Part shown: positions 424 through 18,238 of the stretch, one piece after another
Layout: each line of letters opens with the position of its first letter
How positions within the stretch are numbered: position 1 is the first letter of the stretch
Origin: a virus
Lineage: Duplodnaviria; Caudoviricetes
DNA: 29,362 nucleotides
Virus record (IMG/VR): IMGVR_UViG_3300027653_000042
Coordinates: 1-29,362 of that record
Strand: one strand, 5' to 3'
Translations under genes and position numbers: made by a program
Notes under the pieces: generated by a model
Database searches by the model: none
What the model saw: only the letters and a program-made list of their open reading frames with translations
What the model was told of the DNA's origin: nothing

Positions 424-804
424 TCAATTGACTGATGAGCAGCCGTGTGAGCGCCATCGCTTTTCGCCGAGGTACTCCATCTCGCACCGATAATGCGTAC
501 GGATCATAGCGCCGAATGAGTTTTGTGCATCTACATACGCGCGCACAACCCAGCGGTCGCCGATCTCCTCGATATGGACTCCATCACTCCACGAGCGCGC
601 GAACTTGGCAGTAGAGGGCGCTTTTAGTTGCTTGGTGATAAATGTCTGGCTCGCTACAAACGCGTCGATCTCATCGACGACGGCCTCTTTCGGCCCGCTT
701 GAGCCGGCAGTGCTGTTGCATACGTAGTTGCAGCCGGCGTAGAACACGAGCAAGATTATGGCGGTTACCCACCAGGGCGGAGAGTCTAACTGACTCGCAT
801 CCAT
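424..804 (-). CDS. Membrane-anchored hypothetical protein (immunity-region accessory gene)
   Basis: 126 aa, N-terminal hydrophobic helix WWVTAIILLVFYAGC, C-terminal YVDAQNSFGAMIR motif, AGGAGG RBS upstream on the minus strand. Confidence 0.8.
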   Translation of the reverse strand: MDASQLDSPPWWVTAIILLVFYAGCNYVCNSTAGSSGPKEAVVDEIDAFVASQTFITKQLKAPSTAKFARSWSDGVHIEEIGDRWVVRAYVDAQNSFGAMIRTHYRCEMEYLGEKRWRSHGCSSVN

Positions 805-7514: not shown

Positions 7515-8132
7515 ATGACGACGAGAGAAATTGTACCGAGAGGGTACCTGAAGAACGCGAACGGGCACCTGGTGCCGGAGGATACGATCGATGCGTACGA
7601 CATCGCGCGCGATGAGCTGGTGCGTGAGCTCTCAGAGAAGGCCCGCACCATGCGCGAGGCCCTGAGCGAGTTCAAGTACGCGGCGATGGACGACATCGAC
7701 GCCTTTGTTGACCTGAGCGCCGAGCGCTACGATGTGGCACTGGGCGGCCAGAAAGGTAACCTCTCGCTGATGAGCTTCGACGGCAGCCTGATGATCAAAG
7801 TGCAGGTGCAGGATCGGCTTGTGTTCGATGAGCGGATCCACGCGGCCAAAGAGATCATCGATGAGTGCATCCGCCGCTGGGCGGCCGATGCCGGCGCCGA
7901 AATCAAGGCGCTCGTACAGCACGCGTTTCAGACCGACCGCGAGGGCAAGCTAAACATCAGCCGCATCCTCGCCCTCACGCGCATCGACATTAAAGACGAG
8001 CGCTGGGAGCAAGGGATGAAGGCTATTAAAGACTCGTTATCGACCGCTTCAACCGCGCGTTACATCCGCTTTTACGAGCGCGATGCACGCGGTGAGTACA
8101 CGCGGTTGGACCTTGATATTGCGACGGTATGA
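7515..8132 (+). CDS. DUF3164 family Mu-like early protein
   Basis: GYLKNANGHLVP...RDELV...KGNLSLMSFDG...YIRFYER pattern and synteny. Confidence 0.85.
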   Translation: MTTREIVPRGYLKNANGHLVPEDTIDAYDIARDELVRELSEKARTMREALSEFKYAAMDDIDAFVDLSAERYDVALGGQKGNLSLMSFDGSLMIKVQVQDRLVFDERIHAAKEIIDECIRRWAADAGAEIKALVQHAFQTDREGKLNISRILALTRIDIKDERWEQGMKAIKDSLSTASTARYIRFYERDARGEYTRLDLDIATV

Positions 8133-8629
8133 GCGACGATAAACGCAGCATACGCAACCGCGAGCTGGCGGCCATCCACACAGCGCGCCGCAACCTCGGC
8201 ATCGAGGAGGGTGATTACCGCGACCTGCTCGAGGTGTGGACGGGCAAGCGCTCGGCCGCGAAGCTGACATCAGCGGAGCGGACGGCGGTGATCAAGCACT
8301 TCCGCAAGATCGGCTTCGAGCGGCAGGAAGAGCGGCGTAAGGTGTCGATCCGCGACGACGAGGCGCATACGCAGGTCGGCAAGATCAAGGCGCTCTGGCT
8401 GGATATGTACGAGCGGCGGATCGTGCGCGACCCGGGCGGTCAGGCGCTCCGCGCCTATGTGAAGCGGCAAACCACCGGGCCGGCGCATCCGCAGGGCATC
8501 AGCCACTGGAACTACCTGACGCCGGCGCTGGCCAACGAGGTGATTGAGGGGTTGAAGCAGTGGCGCCATCGCGTGTTGCGCAACCGGGCCATTGCCGAAG
8601 GGCGCAAGCGTAAACGTGCAAGCAAGTAG
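8129..8629 (+). CDS. gemA: GemA / Mu gp16 family regulatory protein (DUF1018)
   Basis: LAAIHTARRNLG...YRDLL...TGKRSA and KIKALW...VIEGLKQW motifs. Confidence 0.9.
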   Translation: MSDDKRSIRNRELAAIHTARRNLGIEEGDYRDLLEVWTGKRSAAKLTSAERTAVIKHFRKIGFERQEERRKVSIRDDEAHTQVGKIKALWLDMYERRIVRDPGGQALRAYVKRQTTGPAHPQGISHWNYLTPALANEVIEGLKQWRHRVLRNRAIAEGRKRKRASK

Positions 8630-8634
8630 GATCG

Positions 8635-9099
8635 ATGCTCGATGAGTTCTGGGATACCGCCACGCCCGACGATCTGCCTGGAGACCTGGCCGAGATTGGC
8701 CATCTCCTGGGGATGGACGCGGCGCGGTATTTCGCCCTGCACTGGAGCGGATCGTGGCCCTACATCGCCGCGCACCGCGAGCGCTCGGCCGATCTCGACG
8801 AGATCGCCTACGCGCTGGGTGAAGAGGCGGTCCAGACGCTCATCGATGCATTCGGCGGCAACCAGCTCTACATCGCCAGCTTCAACTCTTTGCGCAAGCG
8901 CTACGCCTGGCACGTCATTAAACAAGAGTTCGACGGCCGCAACGCGGGCGCCCTTGCGGCCCGCCTGCAAGTGCCGAGGCGCTACGTGATGGAGGTGGTG
9001 ACGAGCGACGCCCCGCCCGAGCACGACCGCCCGCGCAAGATGGGCCCGGAACCGGGCCCTGCCGCCGGCGACGGCGCCCAGCTTCAAATTGACTTTTAG
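8635..9099 (+). CDS. Mor/C family transcription activator
   Basis: LGEEAVQTLIDAFGGNQLYIA...IKQEFDGRNAGALAARLQV; follows gemA. Confidence 0.85.
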   Translation: MLDEFWDTATPDDLPGDLAEIGHLLGMDAARYFALHWSGSWPYIAAHRERSADLDEIAYALGEEAVQTLIDAFGGNQLYIASFNSLRKRYAWHVIKQEFDGRNAGALAARLQVPRRYVMEVVTSDAPPEHDRPRKMGPEPGPAAGDGAQLQIDF

Positions 9100-9137
9100 A
9101 TCGGCGGCGCGTCCGCTTAAGCGACAGTTTATACACC
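9100..9137 (-). repeat. Truncated attC remnant with mutated core site
   Basis: GCGTCCGCTTAAGCGACAGTTTATAC aligns with GCGTCCCCTTGAACGAATAGTTAT of the intact sites; core GTT reads TTT; other arm missing. Confidence 0.7.
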
Positions 9138-9153
9138 AACAGGAGACAGACCG

Positions 9154-9399
9154 ATGGAAATGACGACAGATCGCACCGACGCGACTACATGGAGTATCGA
9201 GGACTTCGACGCGTTCTTCGCTGACCGCGGATTCGTCCTGGATGCAGAGATGGCCATCAATGACGATGACGTGGGAGCGGGCGTCGTAGCCGAAGGCCAC
9301 GCAAGGCTGCGCAATGTGATTACAATATTTATGCTGCTTGGCCGGGTAAGCAAGGCCGACGTGGATGACGCCATGCGAATCGTGGATGCGCTGCGATAG
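9154..9399 (+). CDS. Cassette A gene, acidic hypothetical protein (81 aa)
   Basis: AGGAG RBS; fills the space between the attC remnant and attC1. Confidence 0.75.
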   Translation: MEMTTDRTDATTWSIEDFDAFFADRGFVLDAEMAINDDDVGAGVVAEGHARLRNVITIFMLLGRVSKADVDDAMRIVDALR

Positions 9400-9401
9400 G
9401 T

Positions 9402-9493
9402 GTATAACGCCTGAGCTAAGCGGCGCACCGGACGCTACGCCCCGAGACAGCAACAACAGAAAACGGTGCATCCCCTTGAACGAATAGTTATAC
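9402..9493 (-). repeat. attC site 1 (92 bp)
   Basis: Minus strand reads GTATAAC-TATTC-GTTCAAGG-GGA...GCTTAGC-TCAGGC-GTTATAC, the canonical R''-L''-L'-R' layout with two extrahelical bases. Confidence 0.9.
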
Positions 9494-9497
9494 CGAT

Positions 9498-10106
9498 ATG
9501 GAAGTCGTAGTCACAAGTAGCAAGGATCTAAGGGCGATCGTCCGAGAGGAACTGGAGCGTATACATTTGAAGCGACCTGACCGGCGCACGTCTGGCGCGA
9601 GGGCGGCCGAGGCCAAGCTGGACATAGGGTGGCTAAGTAATGAGGAAGCACAGAAGGCCATGGGTCTATCACGTGCGACTCTCGCCCGCTACCGTGCCGA
9701 CGGTACGTTGCCGTACTCGAAACTCGGCCAAAACATCTTTTATAAGACGGACGACATCAAAGCGGCACTTCAAGGAGGCGTGCAGGGTGTCCATATAGAC
9801 GATATGTGCCAGCGGTTCAAATACCCGGAGGTGCCCACGCCCCCAATGCCCGAGCCGCTTCCAGATGCGCCGGGTATCTATTTCGTGTGGAGGGATGATC
9901 GCGTCGTGTATGTGGGACAGTCACAGAGACTTTCGTCTCGATGCCAGATCGGTAATCACGGTGTAATCAAGACGGGAGACGGCCTGTCGTGGCTCCTGTT
10001 TGACGTCAAACAACTTGTATTCGCCGAGTGCTTCTATATCGGCATCCTGCGACCGGCCTACAACGACGCTACACCAGATAGGCGAGGTGTTCTGAAAGCG
10101 GTATAA
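9498..10106 (+). CDS. Cassette B gene, HTH_17 fused to GIY-YIG-like nuclease domain
   Basis: WLSNEEAQKAMGLSRATLARYRADGTLPYSKLG HTH plus PGIYFVW...VVYVGQS...L..R GIY-YIG motif; stop TAA lies in the core site. Confidence 0.8.
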   Translation: MEVVVTSSKDLRAIVREELERIHLKRPDRRTSGARAAEAKLDIGWLSNEEAQKAMGLSRATLARYRADGTLPYSKLGQNIFYKTDDIKAALQGGVQGVHIDDMCQRFKYPEVPTPPMPEPLPDAPGIYFVWRDDRVVYVGQSQRLSSRCQIGNHGVIKTGDGLSWLLFDVKQLVFAECFYIGILRPAYNDATPDRRGVLKAV

Positions 10107-10226
10107 CGGATGGCCGCTCTGCCGCGCAGGGCATCACCAAGACACCAACGAAGACATGAACGACAACATGAGCACGACGGATCAGACGAGCGAGAGCCCT
10201 GCGTCGGCAGCAGCGGCGGGTTATGT
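10101..10226 (-). repeat. attC site 2 (126 bp, different attC family)
   Basis: Plus-strand arms CCGCTCTGCCGCGCAGGGC and GCCCTGCG(T)CGGCAG(C)AGCGG are perfect complements except two extrahelical bases; flanked by GTATAAC and GTTATGT. Confidence 0.88.
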
Positions 10227-10395
10227 GGGCGACCTGCGCCAAACCGTGTACCCTCACGGGGGCTCTCGCATCTGGGTCGAGGAACCCGACGGATCGCGCA
10301 ACCTGATCGCGGACACCTACACGACAGCCGAGTACGCCGAGGCCGTCCGCGACTTCACGGAGAAGTGGCTTCGAGACAACTCCGAGGCCACATAA
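10156..10395 (+). CDS. Cassette C gene, hypothetical protein (79 aa; start inside attC2)
   Basis: ATG at 10156/10168 lies in the attC2 loop; stop TAA lies in the next core site. Confidence 0.7.
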   Translation: MNDNMSTTDQTSESPASAAAAGYVGDLRQTVYPHGGSRIWVEEPDGSRNLIADTYTTAEYAEAVRDFTEKWLRDNSEAT

Positions 10396-10480
10396 CGCCT
10401 GAGTTAAGGGGCGCACCGGACGCTGCGCCCCGACATAGCACGACCCGTTACGGTGCGTCCCCTTGAACGAATAGTTATGT
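10390..10480 (-). repeat. attC site 3 (91 bp, near-copy of attC1)
   Basis: Plus-strand arms GTTAAGGGGCGCACCG and CGGTGCG(T)CCCCTT(G)AAC with extrahelical T and G; 6-bp and 5-bp spacers to the AAC and GTT cores. Confidence 0.92.
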
Positions 10481-10484
10481 TGCT

Positions 10485-10808
10485 ATGACCCACGAAGATT
10501 ACCTCGAATACGAGCGGCAAAAAGCGCACGCGGAAGACCACGAAGCCTTTCTCGCTGAAGAACAAAACTTTCGATGGGCCTACGCCCTCCTCGTTGAGCT
10601 TGCCAAGGAGGAACTACGCAAGGCGAACGATTTGCGGGAGAGCCCAAATGATTGGCCTGCCGGGCAAGAATGGAGCGACCTCGCTGCTACAAGCCAAAGC
10701 ATCTTTCTCTGTAAAGCACGCGAGCGTTGCGGGATCGACCACGACCAATTTCTCGAGCCGATTCGGTCGGGACGGTACGACGTGGACGACTTAGTGCAGG
10801 CAACATAA
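10485..10808 (+). CDS. Cassette D gene, hypothetical protein (107 aa)
   Basis: Starts just after attC3; stop TAA lies within CAACATAAC. Confidence 0.75.
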   Translation: MTHEDYLEYERQKAHAEDHEAFLAEEQNFRWAYALLVELAKEELRKANDLRESPNDWPAGQEWSDLAATSQSIFLCKARERCGIDHDQFLEPIRSGRYDVDDLVQAT

Positions 10809-10822
10809 CTCATGTTATTGCG
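10801..10822 (-). other. Candidate attI-like simple site at the array head
   Basis: Minus strand CGCAATAAC-ATGA-GTTATGTTG: inverted core pair with no attC stem adjoining. Confidence 0.5.
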
Positions 10823-10932
10823 CCTCACGCGCGATAAAAAGGAACCTCCGCGTTCGGCCTCGAAAGAGAGATGAGCGAAGCATAGCTTCCACATCCCCGT
10901 TTTAAAGCACCGATTAAAGGTGCCAGAGATTG

Positions 10933-10971
10933 CCCCTGTCGCGCGTTGAGCGCGGCGGGGGTTTTTTGTTT
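10933..10971 (+). terminator. Rho-independent terminator closing the early operon and cassette array
   Basis: CCCCTGTCGCGC-GTTGA-GCGCGGCGGGGG stem followed by TTTTTTGTTT. Confidence 0.8.
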
Positions 10972-11011
10972 GCCCCGGCCTGATCCGTCCATCCTCCATC
11001 CCCTCATCGCC

Positions 11012-11530
11012 ATGGCCGAGGACAGGTTCCTGGTAGCCTTGCACGAGCTGCTTTCGCTCGAGGGTGGCTACAACGACATCGAGCAGGACCGCGGCGGGGC
11101 CACCAACCTCGGCATCAGCCTGCGCTTTCTGCAGTCGATCCGGCCGGGGGCGACGGCGGCAGACGTCCGGCGACTCACGCTGGAGGATGCCCAGGCGATC
11201 TACCGCATGCACTTCTGGGACCGCTACCGCTGCGGCGACCTGCCGAGGCCGCTCGACGTAGCGTTCTTCTCCATCGTCGTCAACCTCGCGCCAACGACGG
11301 CCGTGCGCGTGCTGCAAAACGCCGTGTGCCGGGCCGGGGTGCGGGTGGATGTAGACGGCATCATCGGCCCGCAGACGCTGATGGGCGCGGCTTCGGCAGA
11401 CCGCACCGAGCTCAAGCGCCGCCTGACGGCCGAGCTCTCGGTCCACTACCACAACATCGTCGCGCAGAACCCCAGCCAGCGCACCTTCCTGCACGGCTGG
11501 ATGTACCGCGCGGCCGCGCTTTTCATCTAA
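11012..11530 (+). CDS. Endolysin, glycoside hydrolase family 108 with peptidoglycan-binding domain
   Basis: EGGYND...DRGGATNLGIS catalytic motif; VDGIIGPQT; FLHGW..R; ATG at 11012. Confidence 0.93.
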   Translation: MAEDRFLVALHELLSLEGGYNDIEQDRGGATNLGISLRFLQSIRPGATAADVRRLTLEDAQAIYRMHFWDRYRCGDLPRPLDVAFFSIVVNLAPTTAVRVLQNAVCRAGVRVDVDGIIGPQTLMGAASADRTELKRRLTAELSVHYHNIVAQNPSQRTFLHGWMYRAAALFI

Positions 11531-11547
11531 GACACGACCGAGGCACT

Positions 11548-11907
11548 ATGGACGCCCTTATTTGGATTTCGGAGAACATGGAGCTCGTGCTGGCCCTCGC
11601 CGCCGTGGCCTACGCCATCCTTCAGCTCACATCATGGGGCCGCGCAAACGCGAAGGCATTGCAAGAGGTGGTCGACGCGATTGAGCATGTCGGCAGCTTG
11701 CAGCTCAGCACTGCAGAGGCGAGTGCCGTAAAGCGCGTGGTGGGCCTTGCGCCGGTGTCGCTCGGGGTGCGGGAAGCGATTGAGGAGGCTGTGGCCAAGG
11801 TCGACGTAAAAAAGCGGCGGCCGACGATCCTGAGGCAGGTGGGCCGGGCGGTGGTACCGCTGGCCATCCGCAGTATCCCGCGGCTGGTGCGTCGCATCTT
11901 TAAATAA
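11548..11907 (+). CDS. Putative holin-like membrane protein
   Basis: N-terminal TM (ELVLALAAVAYAILQL), basic C-terminus, adjacent to the endolysin; ATG at 11548. Confidence 0.55.
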   Translation: MDALIWISENMELVLALAAVAYAILQLTSWGRANAKALQEVVDAIEHVGSLQLSTAEASAVKRVVGLAPVSLGVREAIEEAVAKVDVKKRRPTILRQVGRAVVPLAIRSIPRLVRRIFK

Positions 11908-11915
11908 GATCGACT

Positions 11916-12242
11916 GTGGAGCCACTCGAGGTAGTCCGGGCGCTCTGGCCCATCCTGGCATCCGTCGCAGCCGCTTTCTGGGGGCTGGGGCGGATGATGC
12001 TTAAAAGCTATGAGAAGCACGTCGACAGCCGCTTCGGCACAATCGAACGCATGCTCAAGGCCGAGAGCGGCGAGGCGCAGCGGGTGCGGATGGAGCTGCA
12101 GGATTACAAGCTACACGTGGCTGAACACTACGTGGACCGCGACCAGTGGGTGAGGATAGAGGCCGGGAGAGACATCACGCTCCGGCAGATGAACAAGGAA
12201 TTGCGAGAAATAGCCGCCGAACTGGCGCGCCTGAGTAAATGA
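11916..12242 (+). CDS. Single-TM coiled-coil protein (Mu gp25-like position)
   Basis: N-terminal TM followed by a helical region; precedes the gp26/gp27-like genes. Confidence 0.65.
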   Translation: MEPLEVVRALWPILASVAAAFWGLGRMMLKSYEKHVDSRFGTIERMLKAESGEAQRVRMELQDYKLHVAEHYVDRDQWVRIEAGRDITLRQMNKELREIAAELARLSK

Positions 12243-16623: not shown

Positions 16624-17042
16624 GGGAGGGTATGGGAAGTGTGGAGAGCGGGATGATCGACCGCGCAAAAGCGGTCCGCGACTGGCTGCCGGATTTATAT
16701 CGGAGCATCATCGACGACTGCGTGCGCCGCGAGGATGCAGAGTCGATCCGCCTCAACATCGATCGCTGGGAGGCGATGGCTCGCAAGACCCAAGAGCAGG
16801 CGCGCATAGCCGAGGAGCGGCTCGAGGCGCGGGCGCGGGAGATCGCATCGATGTACAAGCCGCGCGAGCTTGAAGACGAGATCTCCTCGATCACACGCGA
16901 GCTCGACGACGGACGGCGCCGTCTGTCTCGCCGCCGTCCGGACGAGCGGTCCGCCCGCCACGCGGTGGCGGACATGCGGCAGCGCCAGCTCGCACGTCGC
17001 CTCGAAGTCTTTCGAATGGCCCTCCGCCTCAAGAAATGCTAA
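16620..17042 (+). CDS. Charged helical hypothetical protein
   Basis: 140 aa; overlaps the portal stop and the MuF start. Confidence 0.6.
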   Translation: MREGMGSVESGMIDRAKAVRDWLPDLYRSIIDDCVRREDAESIRLNIDRWEAMARKTQEQARIAEERLEARAREIASMYKPRELEDEISSITRELDDGRRRLSRRRPDERSARHAVADMRQRQLARRLEVFRMALRLKKC

Positions 17043-18238
17043 CCCCCACCACCGAATACCGCTCTTTGAGCCCCGATCGGGCGATCGCGTACTTCCGCCG
17101 GAAGCTCGCGCTGCCGATCGAGCGCTGGAGCCAGGTCTACGCCGAGCAGCACGAGCGCGCCTTCGTGGTGGCGGGTGCGATGCGGCGCGACATGGTGGAG
17201 GACTTCCAGTCGGCCATCGCCCGCGCCATCGAGGAGGGCACGACCATTACGGATTTCAGGAAGGAGTTCGACAGCATCGTCCAGCGCTACGGCTGGGACT
17301 ATAACGGCAGCCGCGGCTGGCGCACGCGCGTCATCTACGAAACCAATCTGACCGGCGCCTACGCCGCCGGCGAGCTGGAGGCGCAGCGCGAACTGCAGCG
17401 CGAGCTGCCCTACTGGCGCTACCGCCACGGCGGCAGCCTCAACCCGCGTGAGCAGCATCTGGCGTGGGACGGCATGGTGCTGCGCTCGGACGATCCGTTC
17501 TGGCAGACGCACTACCCGCCCAACGGCTGGGGCTGCTCGTGCTACGTCGAGGCCCTCGATGCGGACGGCCTGCAGCGCCTGGGGAAATCCGGCCCGGACC
17601 CGTCGCCGGAAATCGAAACCTACGAATGGACGAACCCCGCCACCGGCGAGGTGAAGCGCGTGCCGCAGGGCATCAGCCCCGGCTTCGAGTACGCGCCGGG
17701 CGATCAGTTCGCGCGTTCCCACGCGCCTGGTTACGATGTGGAGGCGGCTGCGCTGGCCACCATCCCCGAGGGCAAGGTCTGGGGAGGCGGCTCGAGGCGG
17801 CTGCCCCGGCCGCGGGAAACCGCGCTACTGGGCGACCTGCCGGATGACGAGCTGCAGCGCCTCTTCCTCGAACGCTTTGACGCAGGCCCCGACCGGCCGG
17901 CGGTGTTCGAGGCCGCAGGCGGCGCGCGGCACCTGATCAGCGACTGGATGTTTCGCCAGGGCGGCGGCATGGCAGCCGTCCGCGCGGCCGGGCTCGAGCG
18001 CTACGTGGGCGCGCTGGCCGAGGCATTGGCCGATCCAGATGAAGTCTGGACGCGCATCGAGCGCAACGCGCGCGGGCGCCACGTAACGCGCACGACCTAC
18101 CTCATCCGCGTGAGGACGGATGCGGGCACCGAGCTGGTGGGCATCGACCTCGGCTCGGTGGGATGGAGAGGAGCGGCAGGATCGGAGAGCGACATGGAGG
18201 CCTGGAGGCGCGGCGTGCGCATCTACAGACGTCAATAA
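17036..18238 (+). CDS. MuF (gp30) head morphogenesis protein with PBECR2-like C-terminal extension
   Basis: IYETN...PYWRY...PREQH..WDG...FWQTHYPPNGWGCSC; C-terminal RYVGALAEALADPDEVW. Confidence 0.9.
   Translation: MLTPTTEYRSLSPDRAIAYFRRKLALPIERWSQVYAEQHERAFVVAGAMRRDMVEDFQSAIARAIEEGTTITDFRKEFDSIVQRYGWDYNGSRGWRTRVIYETNLTGAYAAGELEAQRELQRELPYWRYRHGGSLNPREQHLAWDGMVLRSDDPFWQTHYPPNGWGCSCYVEALDADGLQRLGKSGPDPSPEIETYEWTNPATGEVKRVPQGISPGFEYAPGDQFARSHAPGYDVEAAALATIPEGKVWGGGSRRLPRPRETALLGDLPDDELQRLFLERFDAGPDRPAVFEAAGGARHLISDWMFRQGGGMAAVRAAGLERYVGALAEALADPDEVWTRIERNARGRHVTRTTYLIRVRTDAGTELVGIDLGSVGWRGAAGSESDMEAWRRGVRIYRRQ

Follow-up and report, generated by a model that had tools for sequence, protein, structure and literature searches.

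A mobile attC array of reversed polarity and without an integrase behind the mor gene of a Mu/B3-like transposable phage

The locus behind the mor gene of a phage genome is a real, mobile CALIN (an attC array without intI) of reversed polarity, and is neither a complete integron nor a set of canonical cassettes. The DNA analyzed (the window) was one whole virus record. Its 29,362 bases amount to about 76% of a complete genome, with the missing part on the tail side. The attC sites of the array read on the minus strand and its genes on the plus strand; natural variants of the region begin and end at the boundaries of the units, and most of the sampled viral contigs with such sites had the same polarity. 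The locus is probably best explained as an integrase-less array of reversed cassettes that is moved by a host IntI and read as the tail of the gemA-mor transcript in lytic growth.

Pfam analysis of the window revealed a repressor, a DDE transposase, an ATPase, GemA, Mor, an endolysin, a terminase, a Mu-type portal, and head genes. With the marker set taken from PMC8705779 (DDE transposase, TnpB ATPase, GemA, Mor/C, and Mu-type portal), the phage was assigned to the Mu/B3-like transposable phages, and its portal shared 42% identity with that of Pseudomonas phage B3. The Mu-like early-region gene gemA (8129..8629, plus strand; Pfam GemA, E 3e-29) was followed by mor (8635..9099, plus strand), the final backbone gene ahead of the array, which encodes a Mor/C-family transcription activator (Pfam Mor, E 6.7e-8; PHROG late transcriptional activator, E 8e-17); no relative of mor was confirmed among the viral contigs. 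The lysis/late block opened with the endolysin gene (11012..11530, plus strand; Pfam Glyco_hydro_108 and PG_binding_3, PHROG endolysin). Between mor and the endolysin gene lay four short plus-strand ORFs with a GC content slightly below that of the flanks. The array was closed by a hairpin resembling an intrinsic terminator (10932..10962, plus strand; 13 pairs, 10 of them G-C, and a T tail), one of four terminator-like sites found against 3.0 expected, a count that is not significant alone. No sigma-70 promoter was matched in 8000-11600, no clear ribosome site was seen upstream of ORF2 and ORF4, and an Rfam search of 8000-12000 gave no match up to E 1.

As a preliminary description of this DNA had stated, all four genes lay on plus, co-directional with mor and upstream of the terminator-like hairpin; gemA has this direction too. 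In lytic growth, the array is likely read at the end of the gemA-mor transcript; its early expression is suggested by the gene order, the position of the terminator, and the plus-strand gene run, which was unbroken from the transposase gene to 10808. GemA is described as an early protein and Mor/C as a late regulator (PMC8705779), so that a middle transcript would also be possible.

Three intact attC sites were located. S1 (9402..9493) and S3 (10390..10480) were matched on minus by a covariance model, R2, with 54.8 bits (E 3e-11) and 59.9 bits (E 2e-12), and their arms were about 87-90% alike. S2 (10101..10227), of another subfamily, was found on minus by a polarity-aware hairpin scan; it had an 8-nt right spacer and a long loop containing the start of ORF3. 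On the minus strand, S3 read AAC-TATTC-GTTCAAG...CTTAAC-TCAGGC-GTT, S1 had the same layout with CTTAGC, and S2 read AAC-CCGCC-GCTGCTG ... CAGAGC-GGCCATCC-GTT. The unpaired bases were on plus, G and T in S1 and S3, C and T in S2. The printed top strand of attC-aadA7 had the layout of the window's minus strand and its printed bottom strand that of the plus strand (primer sequences in Table S3 of Qi 2023, PMC9892861). All three sites had the R''-L''-loop-L'-R' boxes, the AAC/GTT cores, and the unpaired bases, S2 by the scan only. The cut of S1 on plus was predicted between 9407 and 9408 (AA|C).

For R2, 50 sites were taken from 152 candidates in bacterial genomes. The pattern that selected them also fits S1 and S3, and the model therefore tests the strand and is no tool of discovery here. 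Applied to the whole window up to E 5, it matched S3 and S1 with the scores given above and gave one partial match of 11 bits at another place; all three matches were on minus, and S2 was not detected. The hairpin scan of the 29.4 kb detected two sites, S2 and S3, both on minus; plus was empty, and S1, whose stem has a mismatch, was missed. The earlier assignment of the attC top strand to minus and of the unpaired bases to plus thus held for the three intact sites by sequence and by model or scan, and the model did not score best on plus. Folding energy did not favor plus and did not tell the strands apart (S1, -7.4 vs -9.6 kcal/mol; S2, -27.6 vs -27.3 kcal/mol; S3, -20.0 vs -21.3 kcal/mol). 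On plus, the minimum-energy fold of S1 differed from the recombinogenic hairpin, and this site may fold poorly.

S0 (9102..9133, minus strand) was an attC remnant fused to the mor stop codon. Of the site, no more than the R''/L'' side and a portion of the stem was left, with TTT, or a 4-nt spacer, in place of the expected 5 nt and GTT. Its L' and R' boxes were absent, it thus lacked the four-box structure, and neither the covariance model nor the hairpin scan found it. Relatives agreed with the window from 9102 onward and differed upstream of 9102, and ORF1 is likely locked in place behind the decayed S0. At the right boundary, S4 (10805..10841, minus strand) consisted of a minimal AAC-TCAT-GTT (10805-10818) and about 23 shared bases; 19 identical bases occur inside a bacterial-type array (L258).

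With three minus-strand attC sites within 1.1 kb and no match to PF00589 in the 29.4-kb record, which is incomplete on the tail side, the locus belongs to the CALINs (at least two attC sites on one strand within 4 kb; Cury 2016 and Qi 2023). For a complete integron, intI, attI, and Pc were sought: there was no recombinase in the record and no sigma-70 promoter in the interval given above, and S4 resembled an acceptor site only, with no real attI as a matched counterpart. A blastn search with S3 against annotated phages gave no match. A Shine-Dalgarno-like word in the attC loop was considered as a phage trait and rejected, as it occurred in 24/87 viral vs 50/194 bacterial sites.

ORF1 (9154..9399, plus strand, 81 aa), a former cassette gene, had 81-aa homologs at 89% and 73% in a search with three matches, one of which was the window's own. 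ORF2 (9498..10106, plus strand, 202 aa) joined an excisionase-like HTH_17 domain (Pfam, E 1.5e-8) to a GIY-YIG-like nuclease domain, its second half matching Atlas GIY-YIG clusters at 0.95. Among the matches listed, 26 short relatives of ORF2 were stand-alone HTH proteins, one relative was identical over the HTH part and had a different tail, and in a contig of run X3 an attC-like sequence started just after the HTH part, at position 9780. By these sequence comparisons, ORF2 is probably a fusion of two former units. The viral relatives of the GIY-YIG part (n=10, 33-37% identity) had no attC nearby; therefore this family is not cassette-bound in general. Names on the HTH relatives (43-63% identity) included Rubrivirga and Bacteroidota, which is only a hint of the host. 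ORF3 (10156..10395, plus strand, 79 aa) started within the S2 loop and ended at the TAA of the S3 R' box, and its sole relative found was weak (E 3e-4 over 34 aa). ORF4 (10485..10808, plus strand, 107 aa) ended at the TAA of S4 and had homologs at 90% and 54%.

ORF2, ORF3, and ORF4 each ended on the TAA contained in the R' box that follows, so that their stops coincided with the AA|C cut; the stop of ORF1 lay 8 bases ahead of the cut. Protein evidence fell on the plus-strand ORFs, as expected from the earlier claim, with homologs or domains for ORF1, ORF2, and ORF4; three long minus-strand ORFs had no PHROG match, and the closed minus-strand ORFs between the sites reached at most 20, 83, 20, and 61 aa. 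The genes were thus on the bottom strand and downstream of the attC that accompanies them, which is not the arrangement of canonical gene cassettes. The statement that all four cassettes are of this kind stood for the three intact sites and had to be narrowed for ORF1, which has only the remnant S0, and for ORF2 as a probable fusion.

Contigs from seven runs (X1-X7) were compared over the region; these are assembled contigs that give presence or absence only, X1 is probably the record's own sample, and X2-X4 are compost samples. Contigs of the RNA-labelled runs X5 and X7 covered part of the array, and they indicate neither strand nor level of expression. In X6, an ORF2 variant (9710-10102, 34 differences) ran straight into 10805-11054 (4 differences). 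This joint skipped 702 bases, with 5 ambiguous letters and 250 letters on the short side, and the skipped block corresponded exactly to 10107-10808, two adjacent units both cut at AA|C: S2 with ORF3 (10107-10395) and S3 with ORF4 (10396-10808). The precise absence rests on a single contig with a low depth of 3.9 and identities of 91% and 98%. In X4, a 1052-base contig carried 10395-10809 with 0 differences in another context and extended past 10809. Other attC-like arms began after 10809 in X1, X2, and X5. In X3, an ORF1 homolog was followed by an S2-type arm and not by S1, another contig diverged directly after 9407, and 10200-10399 was covered with 5 differences. Other sequences ended at S3 (X2, X3, and X6) and at S4 (X6), and the stretch 10805-10841 was followed by different sequences in X1, X2, X6, and X7. 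Two joints with unknown filling in X3 (9101 to 10393 and 10227 to 10804) are leads only.

The natural variants thus identify the upstream attC together with its gene as what travels. The earlier claim that the attC upstream of a gene belongs to the unit of that gene was borne out by the relative that lacks exactly 10107-10808 and by the identical copy of 10395-10809 elsewhere. In presence or absence, the variants are gene cassettes in the sense of units bounded by G|TT cut points.

It is very unlikely that the hairpins are attC descendants that now act as homology patches or RNA elements, with genes exchanged by ordinary recombination or slippage. The likeness of the S1 and S3 arms would suit such exchange, as would the decay of S0, the site that ORF2 seemingly lost, and the finding that plus is not the better folder; the 5 letters shared at the X6 joint could also guide a deletion by something other than IntI, which counts against the preferred explanation. 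However, the X6 joint links the dissimilar S2 and S4 at the predicted cut, the X3 contig diverges directly after the AA at 9407, unrelated attC sequences start after 10809 in three runs, and three sites from two subfamilies have retained their R and L boxes and unpaired bases.

The polarity of attC-owned genes was surveyed with one polarity-bearing pattern, which samples one attC type only, at 110 loci in viral contigs (flanks for 80) and 145 loci in bacterial genomes (from 11/64 parts). Gene strands were called by a simple, composition-based caller, which recovered the window's own genes and is crude (locus L125 looks miscalled); loci L256 and L257 belong to the phage of the window itself and add no independent support. 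The 103 viral sites comprised 57 whose own gene was reversed, 8 with a canonical gene, 4 without a call, and 34 with flanks that were short; for the 208 bacterial sites, the numbers were 17, 76, 17, and 98. Among callable sites, 57/65 were thus reversed in viral contigs vs 17/93 in bacterial genomes. A strict hairpin filter left 42/45 vs 11/60 reversed (Fisher p 2e-15). Both counts are given because this filter was too strict, removing 33/103 viral and 77/208 bacterial sites, many of them plainly real. After clustering of alike sites, 26/29 viral vs 4/19 bacterial were reversed. As an independent check, PHROGs were searched with the longest ORF of each strand at 69 viral sites, and matches were obtained for 18/66 candidate ORFs on the bottom strand vs 2/62 on the top strand; both top-strand matches were terminase genes at weakly folding motifs.

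These results support reversed polarity as a phage-wide class and not an accident of this locus. A phage class of reversed cassettes had been proposed earlier, and the proposal stands on the site counts and the PHROG matches; it does not extend to every phage array, as the record of phage TJE1 scored canonical. It is highly improbable that a piece of an ordinary bacterial array was captured once and that the locus happens to hold minority cassettes with inverted genes. Such cassettes exist, as 17/93 callable bacterial sites were called reversed, TJE1 shows that phages can hold canonical arrays, and the HTH part of ORF2 has the Rubrivirga and Bacteroidota relatives. Yet three or four of the four units are reversed here and most callable sites are reversed across viral contigs, the cut point is where the genes stop, other units of the same polarity are present in relatives, and the closed minus-strand ORFs between the sites are short.

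No tyrosine recombinase (PF00589) was found in the window, nor in any of five other array-bearing viral records, two of which were at least 90% complete, and a recombinase motif screen over the loci matched bacterial loci only. Among 87 viral sites, 27 had a bacterial site at a similarity of at least 0.85. Since there was no recombinase in the window and the five records and these 27/87 viral sites have a bacterial counterpart, host IntI would be the simplest enzyme. The phage may have an integrase of its own in the missing part of its contig. A tyrosine recombinase of the phage, or of some other source than the host, would then exchange the units, in a phage-only system with its own acceptor site, and an IntI-like gene in the missing quarter of the genome or in co-infecting phages has been considered as the source. 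This reading is unlikely. The incompleteness of the contig leaves room for it, and an AAC-4 nt-GTT core like that of S4 occurred within 1.5 kb of attC in 4/80 viral loci, one known beforehand. It is opposed by the recombinase searches and the motif screen, by the overlap of phage and bacterial attC sequences, and by the recombination of PH101 sites by IntI1 (Qi 2023, PMC9892861).

The AAC-4 nt-GTT cores were on the same side of attC in three of the four viral loci, and there was no one-side enrichment at viral sites (3 vs 3). In other phages, genes continue past these sites, which may there be remains of collapsed attC. No attI core was returned when the DNA upstream of seven bacterial intI genes was searched, so S4 has no match to a real attI.

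Qi 2023 (PMC9892861) described 17 phage CALINs; IntI1 recombined five phage attC sites, the bottom strand above the top strand, and recombined PH101 sites with attI1. Scored here, the records of PH101 and ctTUS972 had reversed polarity, and P12002L gave no model match and hence no polarity score. The printed sequence of PH101_attC2 was identical, letter for letter, to the PH101 gene strand, its bottom strand lies on the strand of the annotated genes, and its first 21 bases resembled S1 on plus. As PH101_attC2 is reversed and was recombined by IntI1, a phage site of reversed type has already been shown to be a normal IntI1 substrate.

For the preferred explanation, movement by host IntI, the following steps are proposed. 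A host IntI is the likely enzyme for the blocks of attC and gene; it would bind the folded plus strand and cut at AA|C. In 3/4 cases this cut is the stop codon of the upstream gene, so that a swap would spare that gene. S4 is likely an acceptor resembling attI or attG, since the array has its top-strand 5' end there and the site is used repeatedly. New units would enter there, at the far end of the transcript and ahead of the terminator, and old units would be lost or fixed through attC decay, as in the S0 remnant and the ORF2 fusion. Observations that fit this explanation less well include the 4-nt spacer of S4 and the genes that continue past such sites in other phages, the lack of a model score for S2, the folding energies, the lack of a promoter match and of clear ribosome sites, and the canonical polarity of TJE1.

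Capture of ordinary cassettes with selection for expression would lead to canonical polarity, so the reversed class needs an origin or a selection of its own. One likely reason is replication. Mu-like replication runs mainly from the left end, and the same direction is assumed for this phage. The genes would then be co-directional with the fork, the coding strand would be the lagging-strand template, and the bottom strand would fold best. Reversed cassettes would thus have a fast turnover, in contrast to large chromosomal integrons. Location on the lagging-strand template favors bottom-strand folding and excision (Loot 2017, PMC5371416), and a lagging-template effect on excision of 3e-2 vs below 7e-5 has been reported (Richard 2024, PMC13108822). 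A second reason may lie in the stop codons: TAA|C stops are G|TT targets on the template strand, and an insertion there would spare the upstream gene and have reversed polarity. Such targets fit the attG consensus GWT (bioRxiv 2022.09.11.507474). The two reasons appear mutually compatible.

It is also conceivable, though doubtful, that phages make their own cassettes, attC inserted at successive TAA|C stops turning phage genes into reversed cassettes unbroken. If so, the result would be a phage-only gene pool of fast turnover that borrows the IntI of the host and falls silent upon landing in a host integron, and this would be a direct and testable route of cassette genesis. From its geometry, a unit of the array that enters a host attI would lie antisense to Pc and would be silent.

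Phage attC arrays are already published (Qi 2023, PMC9892861). Phage cassettes with genes reversed against attC were not found described in the literature searched (subscription papers lay outside it), and none are described in the available parts of PMC4889954, PMC8876359, PMC5737381, PMC13676570, and bioRxiv 2022.02.06.479319. In integron theory, the choice of the attC strand puts the gene in line with Pc (PMC13108822; bioRxiv 2022.09.11.507474). A large class of opposite polarity that is enriched in phages means that a second gene pool depends on attC. Phage transcription and replication shape this pool, which is separate from the host pool with its anti-phage defence genes. Phages likely exchange swappable genes from a pool of their own, likely by means of a host integron enzyme. 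The class also bears on the question of cassette origin. Tools that pair a gene with the downstream attC will assign phage genes to the wrong site. The locus also adds a transposable phage whose natural variants mark the unit boundaries to the base.

The array shares with the phage CALINs of Qi 2023 (PMC9892861) an attC array without intI in a phage and small accessory genes, and with PH101 and ctTUS972 the reversed polarity. The available text of that study leaves genes reversed against attC unmentioned, calls TJE1 and PH101 structurally typical, and reports neither a transposable phage nor natural swaps of units, both of which are present here. With bacterial integron arrays (class 1 attC-aadA7 and sedentary chromosomal arrays), it has in common the R'', L'', L', and R' boxes, the 5-nt left spacer, the unpaired bases, the cut at G|TT, and the attC sequence types. 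Unlike them, it has the gene on the bottom strand, attC upstream of the gene, and the stop codon in the R' box; no intI or Pc was seen, and its genes would be expressed from a phage operon whose end lies just past the likely acceptor.

Like the attG sites of Loot et al. (bioRxiv 2022.09.11.507474), S4 offers a GWT core for cassette insertion by IntI. Cassettes inserted into genomes can be domesticated by loss of attC according to the same source, and the attC loss at S0 parallels this. Unlike attG, S4 is reused by several units and has an inverted core box 4 nt away, and insertion of canonical cassettes at attG would give canonical polarity in an operon, unlike the reversed polarity seen here. 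The semi-essential region of Mu/B3-like phages is similar in its short unknown genes, its place in the early region, and the phage type with TnpA, TnpB, GemA, and Mor/C; the genes of the array, in contrast, follow mor, are bounded by attC, and vary as units.

Minimal sites consisting of two perfect inverted core boxes separated by a 4-nt gap were present at loci L044, L052/L316 (1501-1518), L277 (1501-1518), L279 (1501-1518), and L302 (1501-1518), placed at gene ends, within or adjoining arrays of reversed attC cassettes; L302 had an additional minimal site with core boxes 5 nt apart. These minimal sites may represent either acceptor sites or scars of collapsed attC. A 19-base segment at L258:1923-1941 matched S4, the minimal site at the right boundary of the window's array, exactly; it lay inside a canonical, bacterial-type cassette array, where a second, almost matching copy of the core stood just before it.

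An identical 69-base attC sequence was shared by L008, L025, L027, L079, L093, L101, and L157, of which six are viral loci and one is a short contig from a Thiobacillus MAG. A nearly identical gene was found in two phages (L279:1820-1900 and L302:100-185), and the attC sites in front of it were related but different.

The PHROG names of reversed-cassette genes at L019, L044, L074, L071, and L018 included three DNA methyltransferases, a PAPS-reductase-like protein, and an RNA ligase; these functions would be compatible with counter-defence. In the window, ORF2 (9498-10106) joined an HTH_17 domain to a GIY-YIG-like nuclease domain, and three distinct sequences continued past the ORF2-type HTH part in the window, a contig of sequencing run X3, and the compared sequence P0006.

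Outside the array, positions 127-350 of the window held repeated TGTCATAA-like words, and the preceding ~126 bases were flank of unrelated appearance. This repeat zone probably represents the transposable phage's left end, including its transposase sites. The 126-aa gene at 424-804 (minus strand), located downstream of the repressor, had a predicted membrane stretch and no match in the family search; its position suggests a lysogeny-expressed accessory gene. At 17036-18238, Pfam analysis identified a Mu gpF-like head protein whose C terminus carries a PBECR2 nuclease-like domain.

In the lambda-like phage L001, a single reversed attC (2498-2586) lay in the leftward early operon; its loop contained both a ribosome site and an ATG. 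In the published phage TJE1 (L354:244-1519; Qi 2023), the polarity of the attC array was canonical, yet the annotated genes ran through their own attC and stopped near the R' box.
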